A stretch of 64,000 bases of DNA from positions 558,001 through 622,000 of the forward strand of contig JAYWIR010000031.1 in assembly GCA_036172245.1 (NCBI GenBank), written 5' to 3'. How positions within the stretch are numbered: the stretch's first letter is position 1; each line of letters begins with the position of its first letter. The translations under genes were made by a program, and so were the position numbers. This DNA is from Raillietiella orientalis (taxonomy: Eukaryota). The notes beneath the pieces are model-generated. The model was not told where the DNA came from, searched no databases, and saw only the letters and a list, made by a program, of their open reading frames with translations. Below are positions 20,684 through 59,960 of this stretch, in pieces.

Positions 20684-21310
20684 AGGATGATGGAAATCCT
20701 TCTTTTCTGTCTTCGCAGTTCCTCGACACAATCCGGAAGGAAATCCTCCTTCCTTATTCTCTCCGAAGAGACCCTCGGAGGGGTCCGCTCCAGTTTTTCT
20801 TCTCTGAAGGGACCCTGGATAGGATCCGCTCCTGAAATTTCTTCTCCGGAAGGATCCTCCTCAAGGGATCCGCTCCTGTTTTTACTCCTCTAAAGAGAAT
20901 CCAGAAGGAGACGTTTCCGAAATTCAGAAGGATGCAGCTTCCCCGAAGGGATCGGCTCGCTTCTCTGAACTCTCTGGAGAGGTGGTGGCGACACACCTAC
21001 TCCATCAGTACAACGCGGAGGAGTCCTTCACAACCTGAGGGGAGCTCCCACGCCGTGATTCCTGGAAGGACTCGGAGGTCGACTCCCATTTGTTCCGGCC
21101 ATAATCGGGGGGCATTTGGTTTCAAACGCTACCAGTGCCGCACCCGGATCAATGTAGGCCAACCAGCGTCATCTTGTGGGGTGAACTCGGAGTCCACGAC
21201 GTGCTGCGTCGATTCCTTTGGAGTCTGTTCCTTCGAACCCATGACGCATGGTGCCATGCGCTGAGACCACCGTAATCACATGGCCTCCGACGCGGGCAAC
21301 TCCATCTGCC
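20684..21310. repeat. Interspersed non-coding repeat, copy A (empty allele, no LINE insertion)
   Basis: Aligns by eye with 42258-43690 (same orientation) and 31825-33525 (inverted). It shares the AGGATGATGGAAA start, the hairpin-rich minisatellite, CTCTGGAGAG, the ACCAGTGCCGCACCCG site (21131-21146) and the TGTAGG...CGTCATCTTG...TCCACGACG...TTCGAACCC...TGGTGCCA block. Confidence 0.82.
20757..20924. repeat. ~42-bp degenerate tandem minisatellite (about 4 units) inside the interspersed repeat
   Basis: TCCGCTCC recurs at 20784, 20825 and 20869. The units resemble TTCTCTCCGAAGAGACCCTCGGAGGGGTCCGCTCCAGTTT. Equivalent units are present at ~42530-42700 and, inverted, at ~33090-33270. Confidence 0.75.
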
Positions 21311-21559
21311 AATGCGATTGCATCTTTGCGGGCAATCTCCCTCCTTACTAACGTCGTCAAGGTTTCCGGATTTCCTGATTTCCCACCGTTCGCCCATTTC
21401 GAGAATTCTTTAATTTTCTCGTTTTTCTCGATCACAACCATCTGCTCTTCTCATCTCTGAAAGTGTCTCATTTGGACAGTTTTGCGATGTTAGGAACACG
21501 GGTGCCGATTTCATTGAGGACTCTGTTTCATTACAGGATGGAACTGCTTCGAGTCACTG

Positions 21560-23420
21560 CCATCCTTCAAGAAACGCAGATTTGTTTTTCTCTTCTGGAG
21601 ATCCACCAGTGAGGTATCTTTCTAACTATCTCTAGAGTGAAACGAGGTCCTGCCTCGAAGAGTAGAGCTTGTCTTCGAAGGCTGCCCAACTGTTCTTGCC
21701 ATGTTTGAATAGCTCGTTCACCTGGTTCGGTTTGAAACAAGATTTGCAAGAACGATGGAGGGCAGGTTTGGGGTAGGATTTATTCCGTTTCTTTGATGTG
21801 CACGTTCATTGACAGAACTGGAGGCAGTCTACTTTATGAGCTTCGAGGAAACGTCGCGATAAAAAACCGTGGCAACTGAAGTTTCTTGGAACAGGATGCC
21901 TCTTTTAGGTTTTCAGATGGAAAATTTAGTAGTTACGTGTTTCATGTTAATAATGTCCCAAAAGAAGACCTTCGGACGTGATCTAGAGCTTTCTAAGGTT
22001 ATCTAGAACTTCCACTTTGAGAGAAAGAATGGTGAGATGGATGACCTTCATCTGAGGACAGAGGTCGCAAATTTGCTGCGTGTATTTGCGAGTATCTGAA
22101 CCTCCTTCATCACTAGGAAAAAGTAGCAGAATTGCCCTCAGTGCTACGGGAATATGGAAAAAAGACCCGAGAGACCAAACAAGTGGACTTTAATGAGCAG
22201 TTGTACGTTGTGTGTCTACGTCACTATCTCCTTACTACGAAGTGTCGGGTAAACACAACCTTTTTAATGAAGCACGATAGCCCGATCACACTATTTACAT
22301 TGGTTCAAATGATCAATGATCAACGGAACTCGATTCATGGGGCAGGATGCATCAGATGAATCAACAGGTACAGAAAAAACAACAGGCATACCTACCCTTC
22401 TTTCATTTCCCTCTGAGACAGAAAAAAGAGGTAGAGGAACAAGAAAGACGACTGGGTAGAACCCATCGCTTTCAGGAAAAAGTCTAAAAGTTTTCACCCT
22501 CTATTCCCAATGAGCTCTTCCTTGTTGTGATAATACTGGAACCATCTATCCTCTAGACAAAATTTAATGTACCTGTGGCCCATCGTTTTCTGAGCTGTCG
22601 AAGTAGACGCAGACTGCTTACTGCCATCATTACTTTTAGGATCTCTGACAGTATCCGAAGTCTGTCACACTGATCTGAGTGAACCGAAGGATTGTGATTG
22701 CCATGTTGAGACCTTGGGATTCTCGAGACGAGAGAGCAGCCTGCCCTAGACGAAAGGTAAGACGCTAAAAGTTCGCTTTCCCAAGTCCACTTAGGTAAAA
22801 TCGAGGATTCTGAGGAATGGATGCCTGGACCGGGACCTCGGACGCGTTGTCGCAAGAACCATGAAGCTTTGCATAGATAGCCGACTTTGCATTGAGACGC
22901 GCCACATGTCTTCTGAAAAACTCCGTTGACTCTGTGGCCATTTCCGGGGATCGCAAGCGCTCAACAATCTTCAGGAAAAACTGAAAGTTTTCCAGATCTA
23001 TGACGTTATGCGGTAATCAGTCCCGCCGGAAGCAAATATCTGAGAGAAGGAAAACAGTTTGATCTTCAGTATGGTGCAGATGGGCGTGGAGAGGACTTGA
23101 GCTTTTAATCAAAGACATCTCGATCTAGACGGATGTGAAACCGTCAACTGCGCACTTTGAGGATTTCACCCAACGACAGTTTGGAATACAGCAGTGCTCG
23201 CAGCTGCCACCAACACTTCCTGTGAGAGCGATGAATCTCATAATTCTGAAGAGTTCAGAGCCTTATGATCCTGACCACAGGAAGGCTACATGAGAATGCG
23301 TCGGATCAAAACTGACTGATCTATCATTTTTCGGTAGTCCATTCTTGCAACTTTGCTTGTATAGAAAATGTCGTGCGATCCTGGGCATCCCATACAGAAT
23401 TTTAAGCCCCCTTCGAGCGG
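21560..23420 (-). pseudogene. Possible second NACHT-domain relic
   Basis: LKILYGMPRI followed by frameshifted TTFSIQAKLQEW (Walker A-like, ~23390), DQTVFLLSD (Walker B-like, ~23050) and EQLGSLRRQALLF (~21680). The similarity is weak. Confidence 0.3.
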
Positions 23421-26400
23421 ACCCAAAGAGCCAAGTTGCACTCAAGACAGGGAACATCATCCTGGTAAGCAATAGGTTGCAAATGCTTGACTTCTGTTTT
23501 GAAGATCATTAGCTCTCTGGGAAAGATTGCTGACTGAAGACATTACTTTGAAATGAGCATAGGAGCTGGAGACATTCCGGTTCAGGAAATAAAATTCCAA
23601 TGTATCCTTTTCTTTGATCTCAATGCAGGGTGTGACGAGGAGGCAGAGAGTAGGGCATGACACTCTTCCCGAGGTTGTCGCTGGCAAGAAACAAAGAAAT
23701 GTTTCCAGTCCATAGCAGCGAGTGAAGTGAGAAGTTGTTGAAAGAAAGAAAAAGGAGTCTTCCACTAGTGAGAGCTGATTCCCTATTTAAACTACTCCAA
23801 CCATGTTCTTTGTTACCTATTCTTGCTAATCAATCTCTTCTATCGGCCTTCTCTACTATTGGACACCAATATCATTCTCGCTCTTAATAGGGAGAAAACC
23901 ATCGGTAGTTTGCGCAACTTTCGAAGGCCTGAAATTCTGAGAACATCGCTTTGATCATGAGAAGAAAGAGACTGGATCCGTTTTCTAATCCTCAAGGACA
24001 TCTTTCCAAGTGATTCGTCCATCTCTTGTCCTCGAATCGACCCAAACCGTTGAGCTCGTTCTGTCCAAGAAGACGGTTTCTTCTCGAATTTCCGCCTCTG
24101 ATTAATTAGTGGCATCGCTTTTTTCCCCCTAAACATTTATGATCTGTTTGGCCCTGCATAAATTTGGTCTCTGTGTTTATTAAGGCATTTCAGTGTTTAT
24201 CTTCCTGTCACAAAGCTGATAATGACTTTTCTGTTCATCATGGATCACATGTTGCAACCCGCAGTGTTCGGAAATAACGCTTCGGGTCTTTCGAGCAGCT
24301 CTGCTCAGCTGCAGTAGAACCATCCAGCAAGCACGTAGAGGTGGCTGATCAGCCTAAAGGCGCTCTGGGTTTTCCTAAGCCGTCGCGGCTAGGGCAGACT
24401 ATGGTCTAAGGAGGCTTAAGCGACTTTGATTCTCGTCGAATATCAGGAGCCTTTTCCATATCTGTAGCTTGCTGATCACAGAGTTAACATCTCTGATTTT
24501 CCAGATAACCTGGAGTGGAAGTCAAGCACCCGAATGGGCAAGTGGCTAAAAGCCCACGGCCCATACGCACCGAGCAGACCGCTTCCTCAGTAAAAGGATT
24601 CTGAGATCTCATATAAACAGTCGATGTTTAAGGTAAACGAAAACAAATCTTCCAGAGGATGGAATCCCTTTTTTTTTTTTTTTTTGGAGCTTTCTGACAG
24701 ACAACTGCAAACGCCTCCTCCGATAAAAAAAAAAAAATGGGACATCCATTTCTTTGTATTTCTGTCTAGAATAGAAAACCGGATGAGGAATTATTCATGC
24801 ACAGTTCGCGACGAGAACCGTGAAGGTCGACCACCTTCCGTTGCGCTGCTCTTAGAAGCTAAGTGAGGTGGAGTCAAAGAAACGCGCTCATATTACGAGA
24901 CACTTGGATGTCCACTCAGATCCTTAGGTGAGTTTTTTCTTCACTTGTTCACGGGATCGATGTTTTTGCTCTTCTCTCGACGGACTGTCTTCATGGAGGA
25001 GGCCTCACCAGCGACTGCTTCCTTTTAAACAGTGGGTTAATGTAACGTCTGTCGAAGACCTTTACTAGAGACCTGCATCCCAACTTTGCACCTTGGTCTA
25101 TATGTTCTTCTGACTGCCTGGGACGGCTCACCAGAACCTATGAGAACGTGCTGAGGTAGCAGAAGGTGGCGGTACTGTTGCTATAGGAGTAGACTCCGAG
25201 TAAATAATTCTGGACAGGTGACCTTCTAGGATGCGAGAACGAAAGACGAGCTTCATCTGAATCGGATTTGCATCTCGCGGAATTTTGTGGAAATTAGCAA
25301 GAGGAGATCTGGGGCAGACTTTAGGTCGCTCGTAAGCGGGGTATGGAGATTCTCTTCGTGAGCAATGCCATGGCGTTTGGATTTAATCCTTCCCCATTTC
25401 TGAGGAAAAATTGAAGATACATTCCCACTCGTTTTGCGTTAAGGCTGAGCAGGCTGTGACAGCTGTCGCTGTTTGCTTTTGACCGTCCAGACATCACTGT
25501 ACCACACCTCGATTTTAATCGCGAAGCAGTTTCCAAGTGTTGGAAGACAGAAGTGCGTTCGTTTATCGCGTTCATCTATAGTTGGAAGACAGAAGTTCTT
25601 CCGCTTCATATTCATTATGAAACTATGAGACAAGCTCACAGTTTCGTTGCAGCTTCTTCAGCTTCGAAGGCAGTATCGCCATCGCAACCATTTTCTTATG
25701 GATGAAAAGAGGGCTTTGTGATTCCATTAGTTGAGGCATGCTGGAGGCATAAATACATCAATGAAGGGTAGAAGACAAGATAATTTGAACCTCCTTCCTC
25801 TTAATCTAAATCTACGAACTGCATCTCGTCTACCGGAGACTCCTGAACGGACTGCCAAAGCTACTTATCTCTGACCTATCAGTTTTCATTTCTCCATAGG
25901 CACTACAAAAGAGCACGAAAGTTCTCATTTTCCCCATTGAGATCCGCGCTGCGCTTTGCAAACAGATCTCCCTGGTAGAAGATTCCTTTTTTGAATTCAC
26001 TCGACTTTCACATGCACCCGGAGCGCTGAACCAGCAATGATTAAAGGATGAGGTTCACTTTGAACGGAATTAGAAAAATTTATTAAATCTCCTCCTTATG
26101 GCATTAGTGAGTTTTTTTTTTTTTTTACAGTATTGGTTAATCCCTTAGATCCCGAATCGATTGCTTTTTGACAGACAGACTTGTTTGCCTAAAACGAACT
26201 GCTTGATACCTTCTAGCCTGCAAGTATTACATGATGCTTGATCAGTCATTTTGCAGGACATTTTGATGAGAAGGACGAATACTGCAAGTTGTGCAGCTCC
26301 TTAAGGATTTTCCCTTGAGAATGCTGCATTCCAAATGATGCTGCTTGACAATTCTGCGGGCATTCTTAAGGGTTTTGGCTTATTTTTTCTTATGCCAATC

Positions 26401-29400
26401 ATGGATTGACCTCACAAGAAAGTTTCCTTTGCTTAAATATAACAGAATCTTTTCCTTTTTATTTATGAAGAAGAATTGAACTCTAGTTGGAAAATGCTGA
26501 GCTATAGTCGAGATTTTTCCTGTTTTGATAAACAGGAAAAATTCCGACACTCCCATATACTTTGTATTGTGTGCCATCTTCTTCCCTTGTTGGAAATATC
26601 TTGGGGTCGCTTTCAAACTTCCAGTAAGCAGGGAGAGCTCTGCTTCGTATTTGAGGGAACACCTCGACAGCAAAGAAAGGGTAGTGTTTTACATCTGCGG
26701 GCATTTTTCCAATTGCCAAAGTCACTGGACCGTGTGCCGAGTTCTGTAGCGCTCAACACATTACCAAGAATCTCTCTGAGAGTGCTTCGAGATTGCTTCC
26801 AATGCATTTTCCAGAGTTGCTTTCTCGCCTCCAATTTTGGCTGACTCTGCATATAGCACGTCACTTTCTTTTTTCCTTTTGCCTGAATGCATTTCTAAAA
26901 CAAGCATCACCTTCAATCCCTACTCGTTTCAATATCTGATCTTGTTTCATCCTTCCTTTGACTATAATGGATATCAAAGTCCTAATTCTAAGAAGTTAGG
27001 TGGCTTTACTTATTCCTCCTTTACTTATTCGTTTCTGCCAAACACAGGGATCGCTGTGATGAAAACCGATGAGGTCAGCCGACTGAAACAATTCTTCCTG
27101 CATCATGCTCCATTTCGACTCGACCTTCCTATAGAAAATGAAATTACCCCTCAATGAAAACAAAGGTTGGCTCCTGCTCCTTATTTCTTCCGAGAGAGCA
27201 AACACTTTCCAGATTTCAAATTTCTGAGATGCAGTGCACATCTCAGATGCTTCCTTCTTGGGAAGGCGTTTGGGAAAAAAACAAACCATTAGATTATCGC
27301 ATTCTATCCCATGATCGAGGATCTAAAAATTTCGTTTGAATTGGATGACGCTACTGGAGCGCCTCCTCGCCGTTTGATCTTCGTTCGACCAAGTCTTGAA
27401 CTTTGTGATTTTCTCCTCTGTCGATATCCAGCTGCAGTCCTGAGGACGCCGACATCCAAGGGAACAGGGCGTGGCGCACTGGGACCTGCTGTGGTAAGAC
27501 TCAAGAGCACTAGGAGTCCTTAAAGCACGTGTTCTCTGACGGCGATCCTAACGGCTCTGCTCCTCCCCCGTTGTCAGGTCAGTCCTGTCTTCAGCACGAT
27601 CTGGGAGAGTCCCTTTCTGGACAGAATCCGCCCTCTCTACTGCAGATTTCTCGAGATAATGGTTTCGTGTCTTCTACGGCAATCACATGTCGGCCTTCTT
27701 TTCTCCTGGTTGAACTCTCTTTCTTCTTATTTAATTCGACGAAAAAAAAAACCCAGTCCCATACCGCTCTTCAAATGTGCCTTCCCGTTCCAATGTTTCT
27801 TCTTCCTCAACAGTTTTATTTTTTACTGCCTCTTCTTTCCAGCAGCTTCCCACTCCCATAGTCTCCACCTAGTAAGTTGAAAGCTGAATCTGGAGACAAG
27901 AAACCCTGAAATCCGGAAACTGTTCCCATTTCGGCTGGAACCCCACTCACATCCTGTTTTTCTAGCAGCACCGGAACTTTGCATTTCACCTTTAGTCCCG
28001 GATGAACTCAGTGAAACTCCTTCTCTTGGTGAGCATCCAGTACTCTTCGATCAAGGTAGCTAGTGTGATGGTTCGTTCGATGAGCAGTTAGAAATGCCTG
28101 ATTCTGGCCTCTCGCTTCATTGAGGCAGGTTTTCGCTATCTTCAACTAATCCGCCGAGTTCTCTCAAGCACTATCCTAATCTGAGGGATCCAATCGTATT
28201 GCATCGCTTGTTACTCGGAATCTGCCTCCGCAACACTTCCGGTTTTTGTCATCACAATATTGTACTGACAAATAGAAGCTACAATCAATCTTTATCTGAC
28301 CATCATCACTCTCGTTGCATCACTGGTGTGCATGATTATCACGCGCGCACACAGCATTTCATCTCTTCAATCTTCCTTGAAATTCCAGTCCTGCAAATTA
28401 TCTCAATCTTCTCCCGTTTTTTCTCATCGCTCGCACCTCTCAAGAGAACTCACTTGTGTCTTTTCGAAGGATGTCTCACATTCCTGAGAACCGATTTCCA
28501 TCGAAACGGCTCATCCTCCGTTCTTCTCACTCCCTACAGTTCTTCTGCGCAAGATCAGACGCATCAAGATGTTTTGTTATTAGTCGATATTGCGAGGAAC
28601 GGTGTCAGGATCCCGAAGAATTCTCGGCAAGATTTATGGTGATCCTGAATCATCCTGTTTGTTCAGTCATTCTGAAATTCACGAATTTCGAGCTGAACGC
28701 CAGTGAAACTTTACGGAAGGCAAGGAACAAACAGGTCAGAGGATGGAACAGAACATGGAAAATCTAAGAAAAACAAGTAAGTGATATCATCCTTAACATG
28801 AAAAAAAAAAACAAAAACAAATGCAAAAACAAAGACTCTGAGATATGGGATGATGCATCAAGGATTTTCGATTTCTGCATGCTTATGACCACCTTTTTTC
28901 TTGTTGCTATGGAGGCAGCTAGGGGTAGTGAATGTTGATCCTGAAAACCCTTCCGATGAGAATGAACAATAGAAGATGCCATCATAGCGTTACGATCTCT
29001 TGGAATATTCTAGAGACAAGTTCAAGTTTTGGAAAATAGGGACTGCTCAATCTCTTATTGAGCAGTTTGAAACTTTAATGCAAAAAAGCTTTGAAACCGC
29101 AAACTTTGCAAAAGAGGAACCTTAAAACGTTTTCTGAAACGAATTGGGATGCAAAACCGACGTCGCCTCCAGCGGAAGTATCAGTCTCTGCGACTTTCGG
29201 TCCAGTTCAGCTTGAGTAAATGATTGCGGACTTGACCAGGTATTCGACGTATTTTTGCTGCGGTTCGCTGTGCATTGCATGGGCAGAAGACTTGGTCCTC
29301 TCTAGCAGCGCACGCAAACAAAAGCAAGAGACTCCGCATTTCCGATGATGCCATCAATGCAAGCATTTTCGCAGGTCGTCTTATTGACTTCACAGAGGTC

Positions 29401-30687
29401 AGCTGGTGCTGCTGCGTTAGCGCGAGACATGGACAAACCCCGTCTTTGGTTTCTTCAATATTTGTACGCTTTTTCAATCATTTCTCCCTCCCTATGGCTT
29501 CCTGCTTGCACAGGTCCTCGGAACGTTCTAGAAGAAAGTTAGGCAGAGATCGGAAGTGAGTCAGGAATCAAAATCAGAGAGAGGAACGAAAACAGGATAA
29601 AGAGATAAAAACCCGCAATCAAGAAATGCCGCGAGGGAAAAACAGATTAGCAGCTGATTTCTAAAATCACAACTATAAGGGGGGGAAAAAAATATGCAAA
29701 AATCCGAGGAGACAGAAGAAAAGGGCGCGGCGAACGAACAATTAGAAGATAATAAATGGCAATCTTGAGCTCAAAGAGTCTGAATTCCGAAAGAGGGCCG
29801 TGATCTCCAAGGATTTCTTGCTACTGCAGTTAAATCTTGATGGATTTCAGTGTTACTACTCCGAAAACAAACTTCGGTCAAATGACGGGATAACTAATGT
29901 TCTATTCCAGTAAAAAGCATCTTTTTGCTGTCCGATTGGCTGTAGGCAGAGCTATTGTCAGTAGTAAGTGAAGTTTTCTTTTTTTTGCGCAAATAAATAT
30001 CATGTTCTCATGTCTGAAAACACCTTTTGAAATCATCCGCACATCTTTATGTACAGGTAATCCACTGACAGGTTTTTTTTTCCCCCGCTTCAAAACAGTT
30101 GTGAGTTGCTTTCCCCACAGACAAGAGAGCACGATTTCTTCTCCCATCCCATTGCAGACGTGCAGGACTGTAATTCTTCCTTGCTGTTCTTTGCTAACAG
30201 CATCTTTAGCAGTGCCGTGCGCTTTGGCGCTTTGTTCTTATAAATAATTGTTCCATCAGCATTAGAAATATCGTTTTCATCTCATCTTGCAAAAAGCAAC
30301 GGAAGGAGCTTAAATCGGCATTTCTGCATCCACATCCGGTTTCCTCTATATAATTTTGCATGGTTTCCCTATCACAGTAGCCATCAGTAACTGTCATCAG
30401 ATGCTCGAAATCAAAATTCAATGAACTTCGCGACAGTAGCTTTATGCATGATGCCTCTTCTCGTTAGAAGAGCCAAAGAATACCTAATAATATGAGGCGC
30501 CTCTCAAAAGTAAGTAAGCTTTTCTGCCTCCGTTAGCAGCAGTCCAAAAAGTGAAGCTGATAATTCTCTATGCATCAGATGCAAATAAGAAAAAAAAAAA
30601 AACGGAGGAAGATGGTTGCTAGGTGTGGTGTGAAGTCCGTACTTCTCACCTAGTGGGAATTGCCTGGGAGAGGTGCAGAAGAGTACG

Positions 30688-31060
30688 ATGGTTCCCAAAT
30701 CCGGATGTGGGAATGCGGCAGAGGAGGCTGGTAAAGCTCAGTGGAACTGCACGAAAGGAGGCAAGAAGAAAAATCGGAAGGGAAGAGTCAATTGGTGTGC
30801 ATCTGCAAATAGTTGAAGCAGATGCACTCAGAAACAGGCATCTCGAGCAAGGCCATGTCGATGGAGAGCAGCTTCGTGAACGATATCTTTGAGCGCATCG
30901 CTGCAGAAGCGTACCACTTGTCGCATTACAACAGGCGCGCGACCATCACCAGCCGGAAGGTACAGACGACAGAGCGCCTACTGCTACCGGGGGGGAGGGG
31001 AGGAAGGGAATTGGCCCTTTGGGAAAGCACGAACCAAGCACAGGAACCAGAAATGGGCAC
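30688..31060 (+). pseudogene. H2B: Histone H2B pseudogene (orphon), essentially full length
   Basis: From the ATG at 30688 it reads MVPKSGCGNAAEEAGKAQWNCTKGGKKKNRK (cf. [22 protein letters not shown]). After a frameshift it reads [64 protein letters not shown]...ELA. There is a TAG stop at 30810-30812, and no other histone genes are in the window. Confidence 0.95.
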
Positions 31061-31824
31061 CGCGCAACTGCTGTCGCTCAATCATCTTGCCCGGCCAAAC
31101 CAACAAGAAGGAGAGAGGGAAAGACATCGTAGGACGAATTCATAAATAGAAGGACAACAGGAATAACTCACGACAGTGTGTCAGACCTGCAGAACGAACA
31201 TAGGCTACCGTCCACTTTTTGCTTCTGCACTACGTCCTGTTCCATCATTCGTCTCCTTCAAGAATAATCGGCCTTCCTGGGTGTAACGTCATCCCCTATT
31301 CACGGAAACGCAGCAAAGGAACACGGAAACGATCCTGAGAAAGGAGCCTGGAGAGTGAACAGTACGGAGATAATGCTAAGAGAGGACAAAATCGCCAACG
31401 CCGAGTTGGCGGGAGAAAAAGTTCTCCAAGACACCAGCAGCATCCTTTCTTCTCCCAGAGATCAAGAAGCCATGCGATCCCTCAGTAAGAGACAAGTAAA
31501 GGCAGGTAGCTATGAGGCACTTGGAAGCCGCTCCACTCATGTAGGTTGCCGATTTGAACGTGCAGCAGGGAAAGACGGGAAGGTCTCGCGGAAGGAGGAG
31601 GGATTAGAGCCGAATGCTCTCCGAAAACGAAGTATTTCATGGGTGAGTTCAGCTTGAGAAGGAATTGGAATCCCCACACTTGAGCCGAGTGACAGATGAT
31701 CCGGAGTCCGGAGAGCAAAACAGAAAACAAAAAAAAATTTCGATGCATTAGCACATAGTACTTGAAACAGCGCGTGCTTTTGCATATGCTGCTCTTCCTC
31801 GCAGTACTTGACAGCAGCCGAGTC

Positions 31825-33525
31825 GGTGCGAATTCGAATCCCAGCCTGGGAAAGATCGACACAGAGAATGGGAGATGCGTCGTGGGTTTCGAGTCCCCCA
31901 GTAGGATGGGTGGCTAATTCGGATGCGGAGGAACTGGTTGACACCTGAACACGCCGGGCAGCTTATTTATAAAAATAAACATACACGACCGTGGAGCAGG
32001 ACGTTGGATCTTGCCACCTTACTTATAAATACAAGAAGGAACCTCATAGGAACTGGCGCGCAGGCCGGAGGGATTTCGCCTCTGCAGCAGAGGGGAAGGG
32101 GAGACAAATAAAAGAAAAACAGAAAACGAAAAATTCAGTCAAAGAATGGGGAATTCGGGAAGGGATCACCGTGTTCTGGAGGGTGTCCTCTGCATCCTTG
32201 TAAGGATGCCGGAAGTTCCTGTTTCATGACTCCCAGATGGGCACATCTTGACGCTGCCCTCATGAAGATTACAGAAAAATAGATGGCATCCCTGTCGTTC
32301 CGGCCTCCTCTGGCGTTGCTCCATGCAGCCACGGTCCCGTCGCGTAGGCAACAGAGTACTGCTATTGATGCGGCCGGCATGACGGCGTCGCTCATGAAGA
32401 GGCGCTTTAAAAAGTCTCTAGCGTTGTCTCCGAGGATTCCAAGTGTCAAGGTAGAGCGTCTCCAAAGGAGTCGGAGGGCAACACAGGCCACCAGTTGATG
32501 CGGGAGGGATTCCTGCTCCCCGTACCATGCACAGTTTAGGTCCACACCCCACCGTGTCCAGTGATGCCGACGGGGGCTGCACGGAAGACCCCAGTGCAGC
32601 AGCATCAAAGCCGGATCCTGCCACTTCAAGGGAATGGTGCGCGTGTTCATAAGTACTGGAGGCCACTGCAGGTCTTCCTCCGGAATATCCAGCAGCACTC
32701 CCCAGCGCAAAAGTCCACGAGGTCGAGCTATCGGTGTCGCAGTGTCGGTGGCTGACTTGGCTTCCACTCGCGCAGGCTTCTTATCCTTCCGGTGATTTCC
32801 ACAGCAACCTCCCATCTGACCGTAAGCTGTTGTCCATGTGTTCCCTGGACTGGTTCTGGCCCTGGTGGAATCCGGATGTCCCTGGCCGAGATTGGAAGTT
32901 GATCCTCTGGGGTCCTTCCAGGAACCAAGGAGACAGTTTCGAAGTTCTCCTCCGGTTGTGAAAATGGGGCCGTCCTCCTTCTCGGGGTGGACTCTATATC
33001 GCGTTCCATGAAGCTGTTTGACACCCTTATCGGGGTTGCCTCTCCAGAGTGTTAAGGAGCGCGGTGCTCCCTTCGGGAGCGACGCCTCGAAGAAACTTGG
33101 GGCGTCCTTTCGGGGTTAGAGAAGGTGCAAACAAAGAGCAGTTACCTTGCGGGTTCCCTCTGGAGAAAAAATTCCAGGAGAAGATCCTTTTCTTGTGGTG
33201 CTTCCGGAGAGAACAAGGGAGAGGTCTTCTTTGGAGACAACCAGGGAGAAGGTTCCTTTCGGAATTCCTTACCTAGAGTAAGAGAAGAATAGACTCCTTC
33301 TTCTGGAGCCTTCCTGAATTCAGAGTGGTTCCTCTGGGGTTACCCCTTATAAAGTGAGGAGTTACGTGCACCCTCGGGTGGCTTGGGCAGTCTTTAAAGA
33401 GCTTCGGGAGTCCCCCTAAGGAGAACGGTTCTTCAGTACTCTTTGAGGATTACAATAGAAAGAAGAGAAATCTGGAAGAAAAGCAGCAAAAGCGGAATAA
33501 TTCAAAAGGTTTTCTATCTTTCTAG
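31825..33525. repeat. Interspersed non-coding repeat, copy B (inverted relative to A and C), interrupted by a LINE 3' fragment
   Basis: The reverse complement of 32860-33525 aligns along its length with 42258-42890 (e.g. CTGAAGAACCGTTC, AAGCTCTTTAA, GCCACCC, CTCCTGGAATTT, ACACTCTGGAGAG). 31825-31938 matches the tRNA-like block (GGGACTCGAAACCCACGACG). Confidence 0.85.
31939..32850 (-). mobile_element. L1/Tx1-type LINE, 5'-truncated (ORF2 C-terminal zinc-binding region plus 3' UTR)
   Basis: ORF 32135..32815 contains PLKWQDPALMLLHWGLP...CAWYGEQESLPHQLVACVALRLLW, a zf-RVT/CCHC-like region of L1/Tx1 ORF2. A T-rich 3' UTR follows. It aligns at DNA level with 42893-43526. Confidence 0.82.
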
Positions 33526-33979
33526 GCCAATAGTAACGACCTCCCAGTGAGGTCGCCACTGATCGTTTCTAAAGTATATATATACATAAAGGAAAAAAAA
33601 GCACCAACTGATCTAGATTGCATCATCATGTGCTCTACACGTATTTTCCAAGATTGTTAACATTGGTCTGTTCCCCCCAGAAAGTATAAGCGATTATGAA
33701 CTCTCATTAATATCTGTTTTTGCACACTCAATCCGCCCTGTAGGATTCAGGTAACTAAGCAACGAGTATTCAGAAAGCTGGAGAGCATCTATGGAAAGGA
33801 AGATACGCTTCGGTTCTCTTGTTGCTTGCATCTGCAATGGAATCTCTTCGATCGAAACCGATTCGAAGGAAATCTAAGACCGGAACACTTACGCTGTTAC
33901 ACAAAGGAACTTGGGGCAAACACAAGGCTTACGAAGGCCAGCTTGAAAGTTGCTCGAACACTCGGTGAACAAATATCAA

Positions 33980-36900: not shown

Positions 36901-38144
36901 AGCTATTCATTGAGACACTCCCGCAGAAAAAAAAAAAAAAAAAAAAGTGTTTCAGGAACGCTCGACGATCGAAGGGACAAAAAAAGATCAATTAGAAGAA
37001 GAAGAAACCGAGTTGGTGAGGGCTCGTTTGAATTCTTAAGGAATCCCGGATGGAATGCGCTTCGTGGTGCTGCTTTCTTGGTGGAAGAGACAGAAAAGGC
37101 GGGATTTCCGGATGGAATATACGAAGGAGAGACCCTCTTGTTCATTAGATGGGATGCTCTGCACGGAAACTCGAGGACCGGGAGGAGATCTTTCGTGAGG
37201 GGAAAAAAAAAAAAAAAAAAAAAACACTTCCCGCGGCCAAAGGTGGAACAGAAGTGGTAATTTGGGACCTGGTGGAAGGAAAACTTCGCACGCCACGCAA
37301 AGAGCTCAGCATTCCAGCAGCTGAGGCGATCTCTCGCTTCAGTTGCTGAAGAAATCGTGCTCAAGTTAAGACGAGGCTGCTAGCACGAAAGGAATGCAAG
37401 GCGAATGACTAGAAACGGAGTCTGCATTCTTTATAAATATCTATTAATAGTTTAAGATACATCCTAGAATGTCCATAATTTTAGATAAGAATCTACAATT
37501 GCAGCTGACTTGATTTATAGTTTTTGATTTCAGAATGATCAAACCTATTAACCTAGTCGAAATCATTTCATTAGGAGCCGGTGCCAATTCCACACTGCAA
37601 TTTTAATTTGGTCTGCAAAACAGATTGAGAAAATAGAAAAAAACAACAACCGTTCTTCGGTTCTATCAAGTTCTATCAGTGACATCACTCTGGGCAAATA
37701 CAGTGATGAATCGTACAAGTATGGGTGAGGGGTGAAAGGAAGGGGAGCGGAGGAGGGAATACGTTCTGCAAGATGGAAACTCAATTCTCAGAATTCAAGC
37801 TGTTCTTGCTTACGAAGCATCCGTGGTTGGAGCCATCCCTACTCATACGTGGCTGCTGCTGAGAAAAGTGGTTTGATTTTTGAGTGCTGAACCCACGTGG
37901 ATGTTGCGCGACACCATCCCGACTTCCTCCCACTATCTCCCAGGGCAATTTTCTCGTCGCTTGGGATTCGAAAAACAGTTAGCTGAGGGACAGAAACGAA
38001 ACACAAAAAAAAAATTCTTTTGCAATTCATCACCGAAGTCGCCTTTTCTTTATTCGATTCTTTCATTTGTTTGATGCTTCGACTTCTCGCTTGTTTGCTT
38101 CTTCATCGCAGGAAACTCCTTCTCCATTTCAACACGCAAAACAC

Positions 38145-38200
38145 TTTCCATACGTGATTCCACCCCTATCACGTATGGTGATTTCCATACGTGATAGGGG
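38145..38200. repeat. Perfect 16-bp-stem hairpin plus adjacent 14-bp direct repeat
   Basis: CCCCTATCACGTATGG (38163-38178) pairs with CCATACGTGATAGGGG (38185-38200) around a 6-nt loop. TTTCCATACGTGAT occurs at both 38145-38158 and 38182-38195. Confidence 0.9.
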
Positions 38201-38869
38201 CGTCAGGACGAACTGAGATACGTTTCCGTATCTTCGTCAAGAAAACGCTCCTTTCGTGTGAGAGGAGTTCACCAGGACGTTTTCGCTTTTCGAACGTTCC
38301 TTTCGCTTTTGCATCGCGAGATAAAGAACTCAAACGAGGAGATGCATGAAAGCTGCGCCGGTCCACGGATGAGAGTGCGAGTCGTCGGGTAGGCCTCCAT
38401 GAAGCAAGGAAATCCAATGCAAAAAGAAAAACAAAGGTTTCGAACAAGCGTGAAGAACAGAAGCCAAAAGCGCACTTTCGAGTACCACACCCAAGAACTA
38501 CGAGGAATGTCAGCGAAAATAAAAGATGCGACCATTGAATCTTCCCATTCGGGGGAAGGCCTTAATTCGGCTCAGGGGATTCTAGGGAAGAAGTTGTAAT
38601 TCTCAGGGAAAAGGAAGAGGTCTTGAGGGTAAAGGCTTCAGGCACGCACGAAGCTACAAGTCGCTACTGTCTTCGCGGAAGGCACCTTATCGTTTATTTC
38701 GGGATTATGTTTTGGGTGCATTTATCAACGACTCGCACTGTTTCCTCCTCTTCAAAGAGCCTTCCTGCCTAGGTCCGAGAGGATCACTTCGGGCAACCCC
38801 CCATTCTCCAGTCTATTTCGCTTTGGCTCGACAGTTCTTTTTGTAGGGGTAGAATTCTTTCCGAAGAGC

Positions 38870-39690
38870 TTCCGTTGCTTCGAGAGCCACGAGGGCACGG
38901 AAATTATCCACTTGTGTGCCGACTTGATTTTTCAGCTTTCAGATTTTCAGTCCGTGGTTCCCATTTTTTCCCTTTCAGAGATCCCTTTTTAGATTGGGCA
39001 CCTCATCTTGTGAAGATCAGAATAACAGCCGCCGTTACTAGCGAAAGGGCCGTCCCACCCTGCACTAATGTGATTGGATCGGTTGAACAGCTTCCAGCTT
39101 ATAGAAGCGACGTCCACACTTTGCAAGGAGAAAGCATTTTGGGGCCTGTAATGAACCAGAACAAGAACCAGTTTTGATTAATGAAGACGAAAAAAAGTGG
39201 GAACAGTAACACTATGGATGCTGGCTACCTTGACAACGGACTCGAAGGCAAGCTGTTCTTCATTTTCGAATATCGACCATCCACTGAGCAAGAAGCACCG
39301 AGGGAGAGCATGGTGACCTCAGCCAATCCCAAACTGTGTGCTCTAATGCCAGGATACAATTATGAGGAGGTCTTTAAGAACACGACAAGTTTGCGCGATT
39401 TCTTTCCTGATTTGCTCCTTCCGTTCTTTTTGCTGTTGTTGTTTTTTTCCTTTACGAAAAGTTATCTTCAGTTACCGACTCAGGTCATGCCCCTCCAAAT
39501 CATCCAGCCGCACGCGCGGATGCGGCACGAAAAAGTCCACAAGCGTAAACACGCTGAGGAACCATCGAGCTGACCTCTACGCGAACGTCCGAGAAAGCTT
39601 TCTCGGACGTGATTCTGCTGCGCACAACGGGCATCTGCAGCAGGACCATTTTGCCATCGTCCTGTTATCTCTGCCTGAGATAACAGGGGC
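38870..39690 (+). pseudogene. Ankyrin-repeat gene relic
   Basis: GSVEQLPAYRSDVHTLQGESIL, MPLQIIQPHARMRHEKV and VNTLRNHRADLYA...DSAAHNGHL resemble the ankyrin consensus (TPLHxAAxxGHxxVVxxLLxxGADV). Frameshifted. Confidence 0.5.
39585..39610. repeat. Perfect 26-bp palindrome
   Basis: ACGTCCGAGAAAGCTTTCTCGGACGT equals its own reverse complement. The peptide VRESFLGR appears in ORFs on both strands. Confidence 0.95.
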
Positions 39691-41099
39691 TTCATAAAGA
39701 CGGGCGCCGAAGCCGCCTAGACGTGTTAATAGGCAAACACGAAGGCGAAACTAATTTTATTCTTTTCCGGAACTGCTAGAGGCGATCCATCTGTTTGTTT
39801 ATTTTTCCCTGAAGAGTAAGGACAGAGGACTTCCATGATGGCAAAGGATCGGAAGAGCCCCAACACGTCCTCCTGAATGCTCGTCCTGTTTCACTTCAGC
39901 AGCAATGGAATGCACGTAGCCGCGACGACGGTGATTAGACCGAGAAGCGAGTGAAAGAGAAAGAACACGCAAGACGTGAGTTATCCCGAGCGCGCTGCTT
40001 TTTTTCCCTGGGAGTGCGCCCACTGCATCGGATCTCCTTAAGAGAATTACTTCTTGCTCTCTTCATCTCATTCCGGGCCCGAGAGACTTCCTCGGCGGTT
40101 CGCCGTTCGTTTTCCTCTGTGCCTAAGAGCGTGCCTCTTCGGTCCGTCGGCACGATATTTAATTAATGCCCCACACCGGCTCCGGCACGGAACGCAGCTG
40201 GGGAAAATGGGACCGGCAGAGATTCTCGAGGCATCTGAAGGCTGTTTGCAGATGAAGGTGCGGCAATCTCGTTAATTGGACCGTGTACAAACAGAGGATA
40301 ACCGTCGCGAGGTTCGTCTCCAGGCATTCGCGTATTCACGAGATGCTCCGCGTTTCCCAGTTCGCCGCTGGAATCGCGGCTGCTGCAAATCGTCCACACT
40401 TGGGTTTCCTCAAGCGGCCATCAACCGAGGAAGCGAAACGTGGAGATTGTTCTTCTGGGTTGCTCGCGGGTTGCGTAAGGCACTTTTGGGTCCGAGGTTT
40501 ATCGAGTGCCCATCAAAGCTCTTCGAAATTCTGTCTCCAGGTGGCTTCCGCGATTGCTTGGAGCTCATCGCACCTTCGTCCGCTCTCTGTTCTTTTCCAT
40601 TTCCCTTTGCATGTGACAAAGCATATTGGCCGACTCCCATCTTTTTCATTTCTTTTTACTTTTCTTCTGGGAGAGAAGAAGGCATTGTGAATCATCTGCG
40701 CATCAGGAAAGGTTTCAAGCCGTACGGTGCAGGGCCAGGGCTCTTCTGGATCCTTCGACACGGTGGGGGAATTTAGAAATGGCGCCATATGTCATCAGCA
40801 GCTATCGAGGGAGCCTTCTCGGATGATGTTTCTTCTCGGGGTCTCAAATTCCAGAGTGGATGCTGCTTCGATAGCAGCGCAGTACACGGACGAGACGGTT
40901 TTTTCACCTTCCATCGTGAGTCTCGAGAAAAATCAAGAAATTTCGACCCCTTCTCCACGGGAATGTTCCCATGGGAACGCTGCTGGCCGCGACTCGTTCG
41001 CCTATTTGGGAGGAAGCCGAGGATGTATTGCTTTTTGTCCTTTTTTTAAAAGGCCAGTGGCACCTCACGGGGAGGTCGTTACCATTAGTCTAGGACGAT

Positions 41100-42250
41100 A
41101 ATCACCAGGTTCTGACGAGGAATTTATATAACAGAAAGCAGTTAAATACATTGGTGTGGTAGAGCCGCTGGTTCTTCCACGTGCAAGAAACTTGCCGAAG
41201 AGCGGTGTGCAATCCGGCGAGATGAGCTTCGGCAGCGGGAGGGAAGGGGAAACAAAAACCAAAAAAAAAAATAAACAAAAACAACAGGGGAAGGGAAATC
41301 ATACACGGGAGGGGGGGTGGCAGACCGAGGAAGGGATCAAGGTACGCTGCCAGGCATCCTCTGCATCCTGTCCAGAATGCCGGCACGTTCTGTTCGGATA
41401 GTGCCTAGATGGGGCCCTCTCAAGGCGGTCCTCAGGAAGATTTGCTCCCAATAGATGGCATCCTTGCCATTTGGGCTCTTTTCCCTGTGTTCTAGGCCGT
41501 CGTGATCCCGCGAACACAGCAGAGGGGACTGCGAGGGATGCGGCTGGCGGAAGAGCATCACCGCGCACGGAGAGGTGTCTCAACATCTGAACATGTATCT
41601 GGGACTGCCCACCGGGGATTTGGAGCGTGAAAGGGTCGGAGGGCAGCACAATCCAACAGTAGATGCGGGAGGGTCTCATTCTTGTCGCACTGAGTGTCCA
41701 CGCTCCCCCTCCCTTGTCGAGTGGTGAAGGCGCACTTTGCACAGGATTTCCCCACGCAACACCAGCAACGCCGACTCCTGCAACTTGAGGGGGAGCACTG
41801 CACTGTTCCAGCACGCTGGGGGCCTCTTAATCTCCTCAGGAGGGATGCCGAGCAGCTCTCCCCACAGTGCAAGTCCTTGGGGTGGGACACTCAGGGTCGC
41901 AGCTTTCGTGACCTCCCGAGTTGTGTATGTCCCAGAGGTTCAGTCTTTGCTGCTATGCAGCACGTTAGATCCCACCTAGCCTGGATGACGCTACCCCTTG
42001 CGTCCCTGAGGAAGAGCAGTACTGAGGCAAGATGGGTAGACGAGGCCTGCAGCGTCTTCCAAGGGTTGCGGACGATCTCCTCCAACGACTTGCGAGCATC
42101 TATGCCTCGCCACAGGCAGAAGTTCGCCGTCTGTCTCGCGCCGTGGATCTTTCCCCAGGCGAAGACCGACCCCTGGAGCCAGGCAGTGCGCTGCGCGGGG
42201 AGTCAGGAGATCCAGGTGTTCTCCTCTTCCAGGGCATCTATCTGGCAAAG
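41100..42250 (-). mobile_element. L1/Tx1-type LINE 3' fragment (related, diverged family)
   Basis: The minus strand reads PLKLQESALLVLRGEIL, homologous to PLKWQDPALMLL of 32135..32815. It shares AATAGATGGCATCC and TCCTCTGCATCC with the 32-kb copy. It ends in YLDPF and a T-rich 3' UTR. Confidence 0.75.
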
Positions 42251-42892
42251 TTAACCCAGGATGATGGAAACCTCTTCGGGTTCTCACACTTTCGTTGCCT
42301 TCCTTCCAGCTGTTTTTTTTCCCTTTTGATTCTCAAGGAATGCTGAAGAACCGTTCGCCTCCGTAGAGGAGGCTCACAAAGCTCTTTAACGCTGTCCATG
42401 CCACCCAAGGGTGTGTCGACTCTTTAAGTTACGGGGGGTGCCCTGGAAGGGGACTGTCCTTTGAATCTACTAAGGGTTCCGAAGAAGGGACTCTGTTCCT
42501 CTCGCGCTTGGTAGTGTACCACGAAGGGATCCTCTTATTCTCTACAGAGGGATCCCTTGGAGAGGGCTACTCCCTGTTCCTCCTCCGAAGGGAAACCGGA
42601 AAGGATCTGCCTCCTGGAATTTCCTCTCCGGAGGGAACCCTCAAGGGAACTGCTCCTTGTTTTCTCCTCCTCTGAAGAGAACCCCAAAGGGATCTTCCGA
42701 ATTCTTTCTCAAGGGCGCTGACCGAAGAGAGCAGGGCACTTCTTGACACTCTGGAGAGACATAAGTCAACTATAAGGTACGCGATGGAGAATTCTCCCGA
42801 AGGACTTCTTTATTCCTGAAACTGGAATCCACTTGTAATCTCCGCTAGTAAACGGGAACATCCGGGGGTTTTCGAATTCCACCAGCGCCGCA

Positions 42893-43526
42893 GATGGGGG
42901 TATGCTGACCTAAACTGTTCTAGATGCGGGGAGCGGGAATCCCTCCTGCGTCTCCTAGAGAACTGTGTTGCCATTCGGTCCCTTTGAAGACTCTTTGCCG
43001 CGACTCTTCGAACACTCGGAAGCAACGCCAGAGACTTTGTAAAGCGCCTATTCCTGCGCGACGTCCTCACACCGGAAGCATCAATAGCATCACTCAGTTG
43101 CCTATGCGGAGGGACCGTGGCTGCATAGAGCAACGCCAGAGAACGCCAGAACGACAGGGATACCATCTATTCTGCTGTCTCCTTCATGAGGACAGAGTCA
43201 AAATAACCCCATCTGGGAGTCTTGGGACGGGAAACTGTTGGCATTCTCACAAGGATGCAGAGGACGCCCTCCAGCACACGGTGATTCCTTCCTGAACCCT
43301 CTCTGTTTTGGCTGTATGTTTTGTGTTTAATTTTTTTTGTTTTTGTTTGTCTCCCCTTCCCCTGTGCTGCGGAGGCGAACCCCGCTGGCCTGCGTGCCAT
43401 AGAATTTGGTTCTTCATGGCAGGTTCCTTCTCGTAGTTATAAGTAACTTGGTAGGATCACGCATCCTGCCACTGATGTCTAAGTTTTATTTTTAATAAAT
43501 AAACACCCGGGCGTGACCGGGTGTCA
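42893..43526 (+). mobile_element. L1/Tx1-type LINE 3' fragment (same family as 31939-32850), flanked by candidate 12-bp TSDs
   Basis: Encodes DLNCSRCGERESLLRLLENCVAIRSL* (CCHC-like region). AATAAA is at 43494 and a terminal hairpin ACACCCGG-gcgtga-CCGGGTGT is at 43503-43524. The flanks are ACCAGCGCCGCA (42881-42892) and ACCAATGCCGCA (43527-43538). Confidence 0.85.
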
Positions 43527-43569
43527 ACCAATGCCGCACCCGAAGCCTGTAGGACGACTAGCGTCATCT

Positions 43570-43680
43570 TGCGGAGGGACTCGAAATCCACGACGGGCCC
43601 CTTCTCCGGGTAGGTTTCGAACCCGCGACAAGTGGTGCCACGCGCGGAGACCGCTGCCATGTGGCCGCCAACGCGAGCTG
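43570..43680 (-). other. tRNA-derived (SINE-head-like) segment of the interspersed repeat
   Basis: The minus strand reads GCGTTGGCGGCCACATGG (A-box-like) ... CGCGGGTTCGAAACC (B-box), then a second B-box-like CGTGGATTTCGAGTCCC. It is conserved at ~21180-21295 and ~31825-31900. It does not form an intact cloverleaf. Confidence 0.5.
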
Positions 43681-46600
43681 CACTCTGCCGTTCCTGAGGG
43701 CACCACACCGTTTGAACGTTGGCCGCAAAGTGCTCCCCGGAGGATGGGCTTTCAAGGCTCCTCATTCAGCCTCCACGAACAAGACGTGGATTAACTGAAT
43801 CCCCGTATATTCGGTAGACAAGTGGTTAGAAGCGCGATCTCTTGTTTTCCAGCATATGATGAGAGCGAAATCACGTTGAGTGGAGAAAGCAAAGCATGAT
43901 CAATCTCCATGTGAACGGGATAAAGGGAAAGCTCATCATACCCATTGCTTCTTCGATCCAGATTCTTTCTGGAGGAAGGATGGAGTTCTGTGCCTGCGAT
44001 AACTGTCGTTTTTCGAGAGCCTCCGCTCTTCATGGGCTGCCAGAACCGTGAAGGGGGGGTAGAAAGAGAGCACAAAAGTTCAAACCTTCTAAGAGGGATA
44101 GATGGACCAAGGATGCTGTGCCTGCTAGCCGTTTTGTCCTGCCTGCAAGTCTGCAGGAACCAGGGTCGCGGATGCGGGGACGTTCGCGAAGAAGGTAAGC
44201 TCTAACTGAGGCGAACCTCACAGAAAGACCGGAAACTCACGGATGGTTTCCCAGGCAACGCAACCGACCGCATCCGAGAGAAAAAGAGGTCTGCTGGAGA
44301 CACAAACGCAAATTACAAAGGAAGCAGTAGGGAGCTCAGAATTGCCATCCTACTAATCCCCATGTGATTTCATCTTTCCGTGAAAATCCGAATGGTTATT
44401 TACTGGAAATTCTGGAGACAAGTGGAAACCATGGTTTCCAAAAGTCGCCGTTTCAAACAGAATTCGGCTAACTCTTCTTTCATCGTGTTCTTCTCCAGGA
44501 ACTCTTTCTGAGGTAAGGGTAGCTGAACGTCATAGAACACGGCCTAGCGTGGATGCCAGGAACGTCATCACCGTGGTGACCTCCTTCCCAAAAGGACGAC
44601 GACGAGATGGTCTCACCCACCGGATCTGGGAACCATCTTGACACCATCCTGCAAAGGATGGTGTCCAGGAGAATGTCGGTGACCTTCCCTCTCCCCCCTT
44701 TCCACACAGACAGTTGAACGTGTTCCTTCGTTTCTTCATTTGGCACCCCTTCCTATCCATGTAGCCCGCTGGCAGGTCATTCTGAATTGTTTGGACGGTT
44801 GTTCTCCCTTGTTTCGTTGCGTGCTTGCTGTTACGAGCTAAAAGAAGCGCCGGGGCGCAGCTAGGTGCCACAGGTTGGGATGACGTCCTCTGCTCGTGCC
44901 TCCTGGAAACGAAGGAAGCTCCTGGATCAGAAAAATCTGTGCGGTTCTCTCCTCATGAGTACGCGCTCAGCGTGTGAACGCGGGGACGTTCATGCTGGAG
45001 GCTGAGTCCTCCTCAGCTTCTCGCGATACGTGTGCGCAGCTTCTTCTTCCATGGCAACGGAACTCTTTCCCCTCCTCAGCGTTTGATAGTTGCCACTTGT
45101 AACCTCACTAAACTAAGGAGTTTGACAAGATTACGAAGCACACGGCATCCCTGCTTTCCTCTTGAAATGGCACTCTATTAATCAAGGATGGAGTCCAGGG
45201 TTCTTCGAACATCGCGCGTAACGATGCTGATGATCATTCCCAGCCATCAGCATCTTCAAAGAGCGGTGCCTGCGAAGAAATTCGATGAAAAAAAACGAAA
45301 GAAGCAGCTCATAACGCACGCGGTCATCGAGATCTGTTCCATATTTAGCCGTTTCGTAGTTCGAAATGGATAACTGCTACCATGGAAACAAGCTAACGGC
45401 TTATGCACTGTTACCACGTCAACAATAGGCATCCAGATGGAAATAAACCAACATGTTTACGATGGAGCATAATGTTTCTGCAAATAATACCGAACAAAAG
45501 AAGAAGAAGAAAAAGAGATCAAAAGAATTCCAAAAATTGATTTCTTATGTTAATGATGCCGGAAAATTTCCTCATAAATTTACAAAATTGGGGAGAAGAA
45601 AAAAAAAAAAAAGCATTCCGATGTGGGAGACGCTGCAATACTTTCGCGCGCTCTCTCGTGCGTTCTCGCAAAAGGGGACTGGACCGGACACCGGTCAAGA
45701 GAAGAGGAAGCCTCGGAAATCTTTTTTCTTCGCTCGAAGAATCAGGTCGGTAATGCGAATGCCCAGATACTAAGCGTCGTCAAAATATGCAAAGGAAGAG
45801 GGAAGTTCCATTCCTTCCCATTTCTTGCGCTGGGATCCTTCCGTGGAAAGTTTTGCCGGTCGAAACATCCAGCTGCGAGCGGGGTGGGAGCAAGATGAGC
45901 TCTTCGTCGCCGGACTCCCCGTAGGTATCTTCCATTTACTCGCAGGACAGAAGAACAAATAAAGAAAAGAAAGTCGGGTTATCAACCGGCAGCAAAAGAA
46001 GGACATCGCCGCCCCCGGAACGCATTCTTAGAGAAAGAAGAGGAGGAACGCAGCGTCCTCCCCCGACGGCCGTTCCAATCTTTATGATCGCCTTCCGCTG
46101 CCGAGGTGAAGAACGACGAATGGCATTCCTCCGAGGAAAGTGGACGAGCACGCATGCTGCCGCCGACATGTGTTTGCGAGCACCAAGGAAACCATGAGGG
46201 TCCCCTCCTCGCGGCAGCTTCCTGCGAAAGCGCCCGATCCCGTAAGGCTCCCGAGCTTAATTGTCACGAGAGCTCCTCCGACGCTCCCGGCGAAAGGTGT
46301 CGGCATTCCTGCCCCGTCGAAGCGCGGATCGCCCGCTAATGATGAGCGACTTCGGCTCCCTCTTTGCCGAGTCACCGTTCACTTCGAAGCTCCTGGCGCA
46401 CGTGCTGGGAAAGGCACCACGGCAACTTCCCGATGGGTGACCGATCCACCGGACTCAACTCCTTGGTGTCAACAAGAGGTGTGTTCCGTGCAAACAAGAG
46501 CGGGTTTGAAACCTCAGGGAGTCCTAAGTCCCCAGTGCTCCCGTTTTTTCCCAGCCTGAGGCCCACGATCCTTTATGATCAATACAGGCTCCATCTACTG

Positions 46601-59200: not shown

Positions 59201-59559
59201 ATTACAAGCATCGACTTGCTTGACCATATCCGGCCCTCCGAGTCAGACCGTAAAGGCAAGGCGACCGGTAGAACTGACTCACCGCCACAAGCACTACACA
59301 TCCGCCCACAGGAAGAAACTTCAGTGTGAGCCTCCCCCAGGCGCGTCCCTGTTAAAAGAGCGCGCGCGATCTCCCCCCTTCCAAGGAACGGGGTCCCGGA
59401 AAGACGGAGGAGAATCTGGCCCTGGAAGTCGAGGAGGGATCTGTGCGCCCTCCGCTAGATGGTCAGAAGGAACATGCGCTTCCCATTCCACAAGGAGTTC
59501 TGGGAACGCAGAAGGAACTGACCTTGCGGCATCCCGCTGAGGGGCGCTGGCAGTTGTTT

Positions 59560-59960
59560 ATGGATCATCCGAGCTCATGGCATTGCCGGCGGGTACGAAG
59601 GAGCCGTCTTCCGTCGCCGCGCGATCGCGCACGCGCGGTGGGGAAGTTGCGACCCCACGGTCGCGTCCGATGCGGCACGTCCGGCGCGTTACACGGATGG
59701 CCTCACGCGGGGCTGCACGCACGGTGACAAGCACCAAGCAAACGTGCTGACGCGGCCTCCGAGGCGGTCGAGAACGTCGCCGAGTACGCGGCTGCCCACG
59801 ATCTCTTGACCGCGAGCCAGCAGAAGGGTTATCGCCTCGGGCCGCGCTGCCCGTCGGCGGAGAGCGAACGCCACCCTTCTCCAGCGCGCGCCCTCGCCCG
59901 GTTCCCGCGCTACCGAGCTGCGGTCATGCTGATCCCCAGCGAGGTCGGGCCTCTCGGGAG
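59560..59960 (-). pseudogene. Possible ankyrin-repeat relic (GC-rich), abutting a LINE 3' end
   Basis: ALRRRAARPEAITLLLARGQEIVG resembles one ankyrin repeat. Weak. Confidence 0.28.

Follow-up and report, generated by a model that had tools for sequence, protein, structure and literature searches.

Many long interspersed nuclear elements (LINEs) of the Tx1 clade are target-specific, and the Xenopus element Tx1 is described as inserting in Tx1D, a repeat of the piggyBac type (Kojima, 2015, PMC4494074); the endonuclease of Tx1L was reported to be highly site-specific on biochemical grounds (Repanas et al., 2007, PMC1950540). In crocodilians, according to the former source, Tx1-Mar and SINEU occupy Mariner-N4_AMi at two hot spots, one at ~240 in the opposite direction and one at ~830 in the same direction, and other Tx1 families favour Harbinger or long terminal repeat (LTR) elements. 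The clade is also described as including Keno, Dewa, Mutsu, Kibi and Koshi, which are aimed at genes for U2 small nuclear RNA (snRNA), for transfer RNA (tRNA) or for 5S ribosomal RNA (rRNA), or at microsatellites (Kojima and Fujiwara, 2004, as cited in PMC4494074 and PMC4640811). A similar pairing is reported here from a 64,000-nucleotide (nt) stretch of the Raillietiella orientalis genome (assembly GCA_036172245.1, contig JAYWIR010000031.1, positions 558,001 to 622,000), hereafter the window, to which all counts and junction tallies refer. An interspersed repeat of ~0.9 kb, the host repeat, carries decayed LINE 3' ends at two sites, and the best reading, with a probability of about 0.65, is that these LINEs inserted independently and with a preference for the site.

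As in the published Tx1L/Tx1D pair (PMC1950540, PMC4494074), the LINE of the window lies at a defined sequence within another repeat, and filled and empty host copies coexist. Unlike the specificity of Tx1L, for which the cited work gives a biochemical demonstration, the specificity presumed for the present LINE is read from sequence. The locus also resembles Keno, Dewa, Mutsu, Kibi and Koshi, described as elements with an APE-type (apurinic/apyrimidinic endonuclease-like) nuclease and multicopy targets, in its apparently sequence-specific insertion into a multicopy target.

Two LINE fragments at one nucleotide of the host repeat

The host repeat occurs in exactly three copies in the window, as found both by relaxed self-BLAST and by nhmmer profiles of the left flank, the right flank and the insert. 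Three copies had been claimed in the original prediction, and all of its coordinates and strings for them (A, B and C in Table 1) were located. The copies are mutually only 62–70% identical and are therefore old paralogues, not the alleles they had been called. Together they occupy 2416 of 64,000 bp, or 3.8% of the window, and their left boundary lies further out than had been assumed, at 33573 in copy B and at 41043 in copy C. Copy A is empty at site 1 (~20678–20693) and at site 2, where ACCAGTGCCGCA occurs once (21131–21142). Copy B is empty at site 1 (33515–33530) and filled at site 2. Copy C is interrupted twice, with its leftmost part followed by LINE fragment D, the middle part, LINE fragment C and the right part; the insert at site 2 had been recognized earlier, and the second interruption had been overlooked.

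The two site-2 inserts, LINE fragments B and C, stand at the identical nucleotide of the host repeat and in identical orientation, with paralogue A empty. Both are bordered on either side by a duplication of 9–12 bp, ACCAGNGCCGCA. In copy C the duplicates are ACCAGCGCCGCA (42881–42892) and ACCAATGCCGCA (43527–43538), 12 bp long and identical at 10 of 12 positions; in copy B the duplication measures 9–12 bp, with ACCAG at 32862–32866 and 31934–31938 and the 12-mers ACCAGGGCCAGA and ACCAGTTCCTCC. The left 12-mer of C agrees with the empty site at 11 of 12 positions, whereas the LINE sequence of B at the homologous place agrees at 4 of 12 (counted by eye), so that it is a true target duplication and not, as it might have been, a LINE-internal microhomology. 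The inserts share their 3' end, GGTGTCA, without an A-run or poly(A), as had been noted earlier (GTGTCA, no poly(A) tail), and differ in their 5' truncation: the earlier estimates of ~910 and ~630 bp for B and C became 919 and 634 bp, and D retains ~1150 bp. Over 616 aligned bases B and C are 76.6% identical. Fragment B extends ~290 bp further in the 5' direction than C, and this additional stretch is genuine LINE sequence, since it is homologous to D and to a further fragment, E.

Three of the four readable LINE 3' junctions in the window (B, C and D) fall within the 3.8% that is host repeat, with a binomial P of 2e-4 (4e-3 with B and C taken as a single event), and both window copies of the B/C family sit at one nucleotide of it. 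The fourth junction, that of E, is the only readable one outside the repeat, and its 3' flank is unrelated to the host repeat. The 3' end of fragment F, a partial relative, was not found, and F was left out of the count. The anatomy of the inserts, their junctions and duplications and their enrichment in the repeat are direct observations.

Table 1. Host-repeat copies and LINE fragments in the window.
Feature	Position	Strand	Description
Host copy A	20640..21330	+	Uninterrupted; without ~180 bp of the left part present in B and C
Host copy B, left part	32858..33573	-	5' copy of the site-2 duplication at 32855–32866 (ACCAGGGCCAGA)
Host copy B, right part	31800..31938	-	Starts with the 3' duplication copy at 31927–31938, ACCAGTTCCTCC on the minus strand
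Host copy C, leftmost 58 bp	41043..41100	+	Ends with the left copy of the D duplication at 41085–41100, TTAGTCTAGGACGATA
Host copy C, middle	42251..42892	+	Right copy of the D duplication at 42251–42266 (TTAACCCAGGATGATG); 5' copy of the site-2 duplication at 42881–42892
Host copy C, right part	43527..43700	+	Starts with the 3' duplication copy ACCAATGCCGCA
LINE fragment B	31939..32857	-	919 bp; C-terminal ~230 codons of open reading frame (ORF) 2 and ~200-bp 3' untranslated region (UTR); ends GGTGTCA
LINE fragment C	42893..43526	+	634 bp; last ~130 codons of ORF2 and 235-bp 3' UTR; ends GGTGTCA
LINE fragment D	41101..42250	-	~1150 bp; ends CTGGTGAT; frameshifted and with stops
LINE fragment E	59970..60948	-	Distant relative, 29% amino acid identity to B (60465–60860); A-rich end
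LINE fragment F	47865..48230	+	Partial relative; match at 48057–48230 in a six-frame search with a profile of the other LINE copies

The reading frame of B is shifted by a 1-nt deletion close to the natural stop, and that of C contains three in-frame stops ahead of its natural stop (TGA, 43289–43291). The 3' UTR of C carries AATAAA ~25 nt from its end and a terminal 8-bp hairpin; a conserved 3' stem-loop in the LINE was considered and rejected, as a clear terminal hairpin is present in copy C alone. An open frame on the minus strand (32138–33115) runs from B through the 5' junction and 86 codons into the host repeat. Since 5% of shuffles are equally open, it is probably a product of chance in TA-poor DNA.

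The host repeat itself is an unclassified interspersed repeat. It contains internal tandem repeats, with a 43-bp unit present 2.7 times in copy C (42577–42692) and a 27-bp unit present twice in copy B (33206–33259), and they form its least alignable portion. Tx1D contains internal tandem repeats as well, and the two hosts are alike in this respect. Unlike Tx1D, a non-autonomous DNA transposon of the piggyBac type in its published description, the repeat of the window has no terminal inverted repeats consistent among the copies, and its assignment to DNA transposons was rejected for that reason. A derivation from tRNA, 5S or snRNA was also rejected, and the tRNA-Leu-like context proposed earlier is not supported: ARAGORN returned no tRNAs in the window, no Rfam family matched at gathering scores, and Infernal at E<=10, applied to host copies A and B, yielded no match to tRNA, 5S or snRNA. 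In this the target differs from those given in the literature for Keno, Dewa, Mutsu, Kibi and Koshi, as none of the three tools detected any likeness to an RNA gene.

A second insertion site, the shared motif and a proposed mechanism

Fragment D, the insert missed earlier, lies in host copy C in the orientation opposite to the host and at another site than B and C. It shares 31% amino acid and ~60% nucleotide identity with them (match region 41388–41981, minus strand) and is a more distant relative within the same LINE clade. Its duplication, TTAGTCTAGGACGATA and TTAACCCAGGATGATG, is 12–16 bp long, and poly(A) is again absent. The insertion was read from both junctions in C aligned with the uninterrupted copies B and A, both empty at this site. 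Positions 33400–33526 of B align with 42383–42255 of C, and positions 33515–33573 of B with 41100–41043 of C (79.7% over 59 bp); because the two alignments overlap there, the 12 bp at 33515–33526 of B match both 41089–41100 and 42255–42266 of C.

Written in the orientation of the LINE, with a slash at the junction, site 2 reads GAATTCC/ACCAGCGCCGCA and site 1 reads GAGGTTTC/CATCATCCTGGG. With a shift of 1 nt, which the junction permits, both conform to TTCC/AYCAKC and have 8 of 12 positions in common. The string TTCCAYCAKC is found at five places in the window, where 0.89 would be expected, and three of these places are in host copies.

A mechanism consistent with these junctions can be proposed, in which the ~0.9-kb repeat would be a preferred landing site for one putative clade of L1/Tx1-type LINEs. 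B and C would have entered two paralogous copies separately by target-primed reverse transcription. A presumed sequence-selective APE-type endonuclease would nick the bottom strand at TTCC/ACCAG (given for the sense strand), at the same position for B and C, and reverse transcription would be primed directly on the 3' end of the RNA. The top strand would then be cut 9–12 bp downstream for B and C (9–16 bp over both sites), and the process would account for the ACCAGNGCCGCA duplication, the differing 5' truncation points and the lack of poly(A). D, a diverged relative, would have entered at site 1, on the opposite strand of the host repeat (GGTTTC/CATCATCC), with a duplication of 12–16 bp. In this scheme we infer the specificity of the endonuclease, the nick positions, the clade and the independence of B and C.

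The arrangement resembles that published for Tx1-Mar and SINEU (PMC4494074): in both cases related LINEs use two hot spots of one host, in reverse at the upstream spot and in the same direction at the other, with a spacing of ~590 bp there and ~635 bp here. Moreover, the 16-bp duplication given in that source for SINEU-3 matches site 1 at 13 of 16 positions (42258–42273, minus strand), exactly on the insertion site of D. A 13/16 match somewhere in the window was obtained in 39 of 100 shuffles, and only its position is notable. Unlike in the described crocodilian pair, the nick position is shifted by 7 nt, and SINEU, presumably also Tx1-Mar, is described there with poly(A), which B, C and D do not have. 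Identity with Tx1-Mar and Mariner-N4_AMi was rejected, as an observed/expected CpG ratio of 0.85 (TpA, 0.50) excludes a crocodilian genome. Because the window is not crocodilian, the SINEU-3 match is either a coincidence or, with little probability, a sign that a recognition core has been conserved. It is an improbable proposition that one endonuclease recognition core, TTCC/AYCAKC, is common to two diverged lineages of the LINE clade, which would split two opposite-strand sites of one repeat between them, and that this core is like the target of Tx1-Mar and SINEU. If it were true, a target-recognition code would have been kept across very distant animals, and unrelated host repeats would have been recruited for the motif. 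Such a shared core might stem from Keno-like ancestors targeting snRNA genes.

Separate insertions or a single event

Several observations weigh against independent, site-preferring insertion. The sample comprises a pair of filled copies, a single empty one and one relative off target, and two other exact TTCCAYCAKC sites in the window (10587–10596 and 30251–30260) have no insert. The nature of the inserts is also affected: Pfam recognized no domain in the C-terminal ORF at E<=10. The ESM Atlas does favour a LINE, with zf-RVT (PF13966, the C-terminus of L1/Tx1-type ORF2) in 21 of the 30 nearest clusters and a top score of 0.97, but its recognition value of 2068 is below the mark of 2300, which makes this weak evidence. 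The remaining points concern the relationship between copies B and C, and they are shared with the first of the alternatives.

This alternative, unlikely and still the strongest of the competitors, is a single ancestral insertion, after which the composite of host and LINE was duplicated, either segmentally or through mobility of the host repeat, and C later lost ~290 bp by a deletion flush with the duplication. In one global alignment of B and C the LINE is 76.6% identical (472/616) with 18 gap columns and the host 66.9% (496/741) with 181, so that the LINE remains the more similar of the two, with a tenth of the gap columns, contrary to a common duplication. The difference shrinks once the tandem-repeat region is excluded: the host then reaches 70.7% (384/543) versus 76.6% for the LINE, with a marginal P of ~0.02, and some host windows outside the tandem repeats are 74–75% identical between B and C. 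Three-way site patterns also bring B and C together (B=C 108, A=C 79, A=B 70), an excess predicted by a shared filled ancestor and equally by a subfamily structure of the repeat. Furthermore, the differences between B and C are spread evenly over the codon positions (29/138, 35/136 and 25/137), as a single insertion would have it; the sources of B and C thus show no sign of divergence under selection, and nearly all of the difference is neutral decay. Along with the stops and frameshifts, this evenness marks all LINE copies as old, decayed and inactive.

Against a single insertion stands the deletion breakpoint it needs in C, within ~0–3 bp of the boundary between duplication and LINE, where microhomology is not evident. 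Moreover, D represents at least one further independent strike by the same LINE clade on the same repeat. Overall, the independent, site-specific insertions of the original prediction are favoured by two of two copies at one nucleotide, by differing 5' truncations and by a duplication belonging to each insert; the derivation of C from a B-like ancestor by deletion, the part still in contention, is disfavoured.

Very improbable is a descent of all three host copies from a filled ancestor, with A emptied by recombination between the 12-bp duplications. Copy A is the most derived on the left, where ~180 bp are deleted, and has the longest branch, as might be expected of such a copy; recombination across 12 bp is rare, however, the flush deletion in C would still be required, and A is empty at site 1 too, like B. 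Near-random insertion of LINEs, with repeats nested by chance in a region rich in repeats and poor in genes, is hardly credible: although E lies in an unrelated flank and two motif-bearing sites elsewhere are unused, it has to contend with the junction enrichment in the host repeat (P = 2e-4) and with the coincidence of B and C in nucleotide and orientation, for which the chance, reckoned over positions and strands of the repeat, is ~1 in 1700.

Identity of the LINE, neighbouring features and meaning

The inserts were identified as LINE 3' ends. As the domain evidence is mixed, this assignment is based mainly on anatomy, namely the shared 3' end, the variable 5' truncation, the duplicated targets and an ORF tail resembling a zinc knuckle. 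The translation of insert B is 50% identical to that of C over 143 residues (C read through its stops), and the ORF motif C-x2-C...H-x4-C is mutated differently in each copy. An AlphaFold model of the ORF had a mean confidence (pLDDT) of 41.6 and was unusable. Word-indexed protein searches with a single sequence and with a 7-row profile, covering longer proteins only, gave no relatives of the LINE ORF. A phmmer search of 1.84 billion representatives gave one match, an 87-residue JGI/IMG fragment from a 2870-bp contig. Two metagenome scans produced 268 and 42 pattern matches, none of them confirmed, and a profile search of the PDB with the LINE ORF returned nothing. A full-length relative was thus not found in these protein searches and metagenome scans. 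In the window every copy of the B/C family begins only downstream of the reverse transcriptase (RT), and the 5' parts, including the endonuclease, are absent; it is by its targeting behaviour alone that the family may be labelled Tx1-like.

Other traces of LINEs are present in the window. An RT fragment at 49615–50004 (minus strand; RVT_1, E 5e-6), the only one found in it, has human L1 ORF2p as its closest PDB match (E 8e-4); it belongs to another element unlinked to the B/C family, and the adjacent ORF pieces have no Pfam match. The stretch 58000–62900 has a GC content of 57–59% and, on each strand, long open frames that overlap (e.g. 61629–62666, minus strand, 346 codons), without a Pfam match. 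Lying upstream of E, it may be the decayed body of that element.

Two further features resemble host genes. A decayed histone H2B fragment at 30813–31142 (plus strand), probably a pseudogene, covers the C-terminal half of the fold and aligns over 62 residues with H2B chains of the PDB (E ~1e-23); the chains listed first, which we take to be of invertebrate type, scored marginally higher, with 86.6–85.5 bits versus ~84 bits for the Xenopus-type 'H2B 1.1' and the human ones. A 143-codon open frame at 4326–4754 (minus strand) shows a weak similarity to alpha-L-fucosidase (Pfam E 4e-7; human FUCA1 E 1e-6) and may represent either an exon or a pseudogene; a close relative of it was not found, and it was uninformative as to the taxon. 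A dinoflagellate origin of the DNA was considered and rejected, with no relic of a spliced leader detected. In the composition of the window, GA/TC is overrepresented (observed/expected 1.23, beside the CpG value of 0.85 and the TpA value of 0.50), and GC climbs from ~43% to 53–59% past 40 kb.

LINEs that target other repeats, including a case with two oppositely oriented hot spots, have been described before from frogs and crocodilians, and since the kind is known, the interest of the present case is modest; so is its value, with copies that are ancient and dead and a clade placement that is putative. Within these bounds, the window offers a small and clear-cut example in which filled paralogues stand beside empty ones at each of two sites. 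Site-specific LINEs are a natural form of programmable, low-damage integration, and each pair of LINE and target informs how APE-type endonucleases read DNA.

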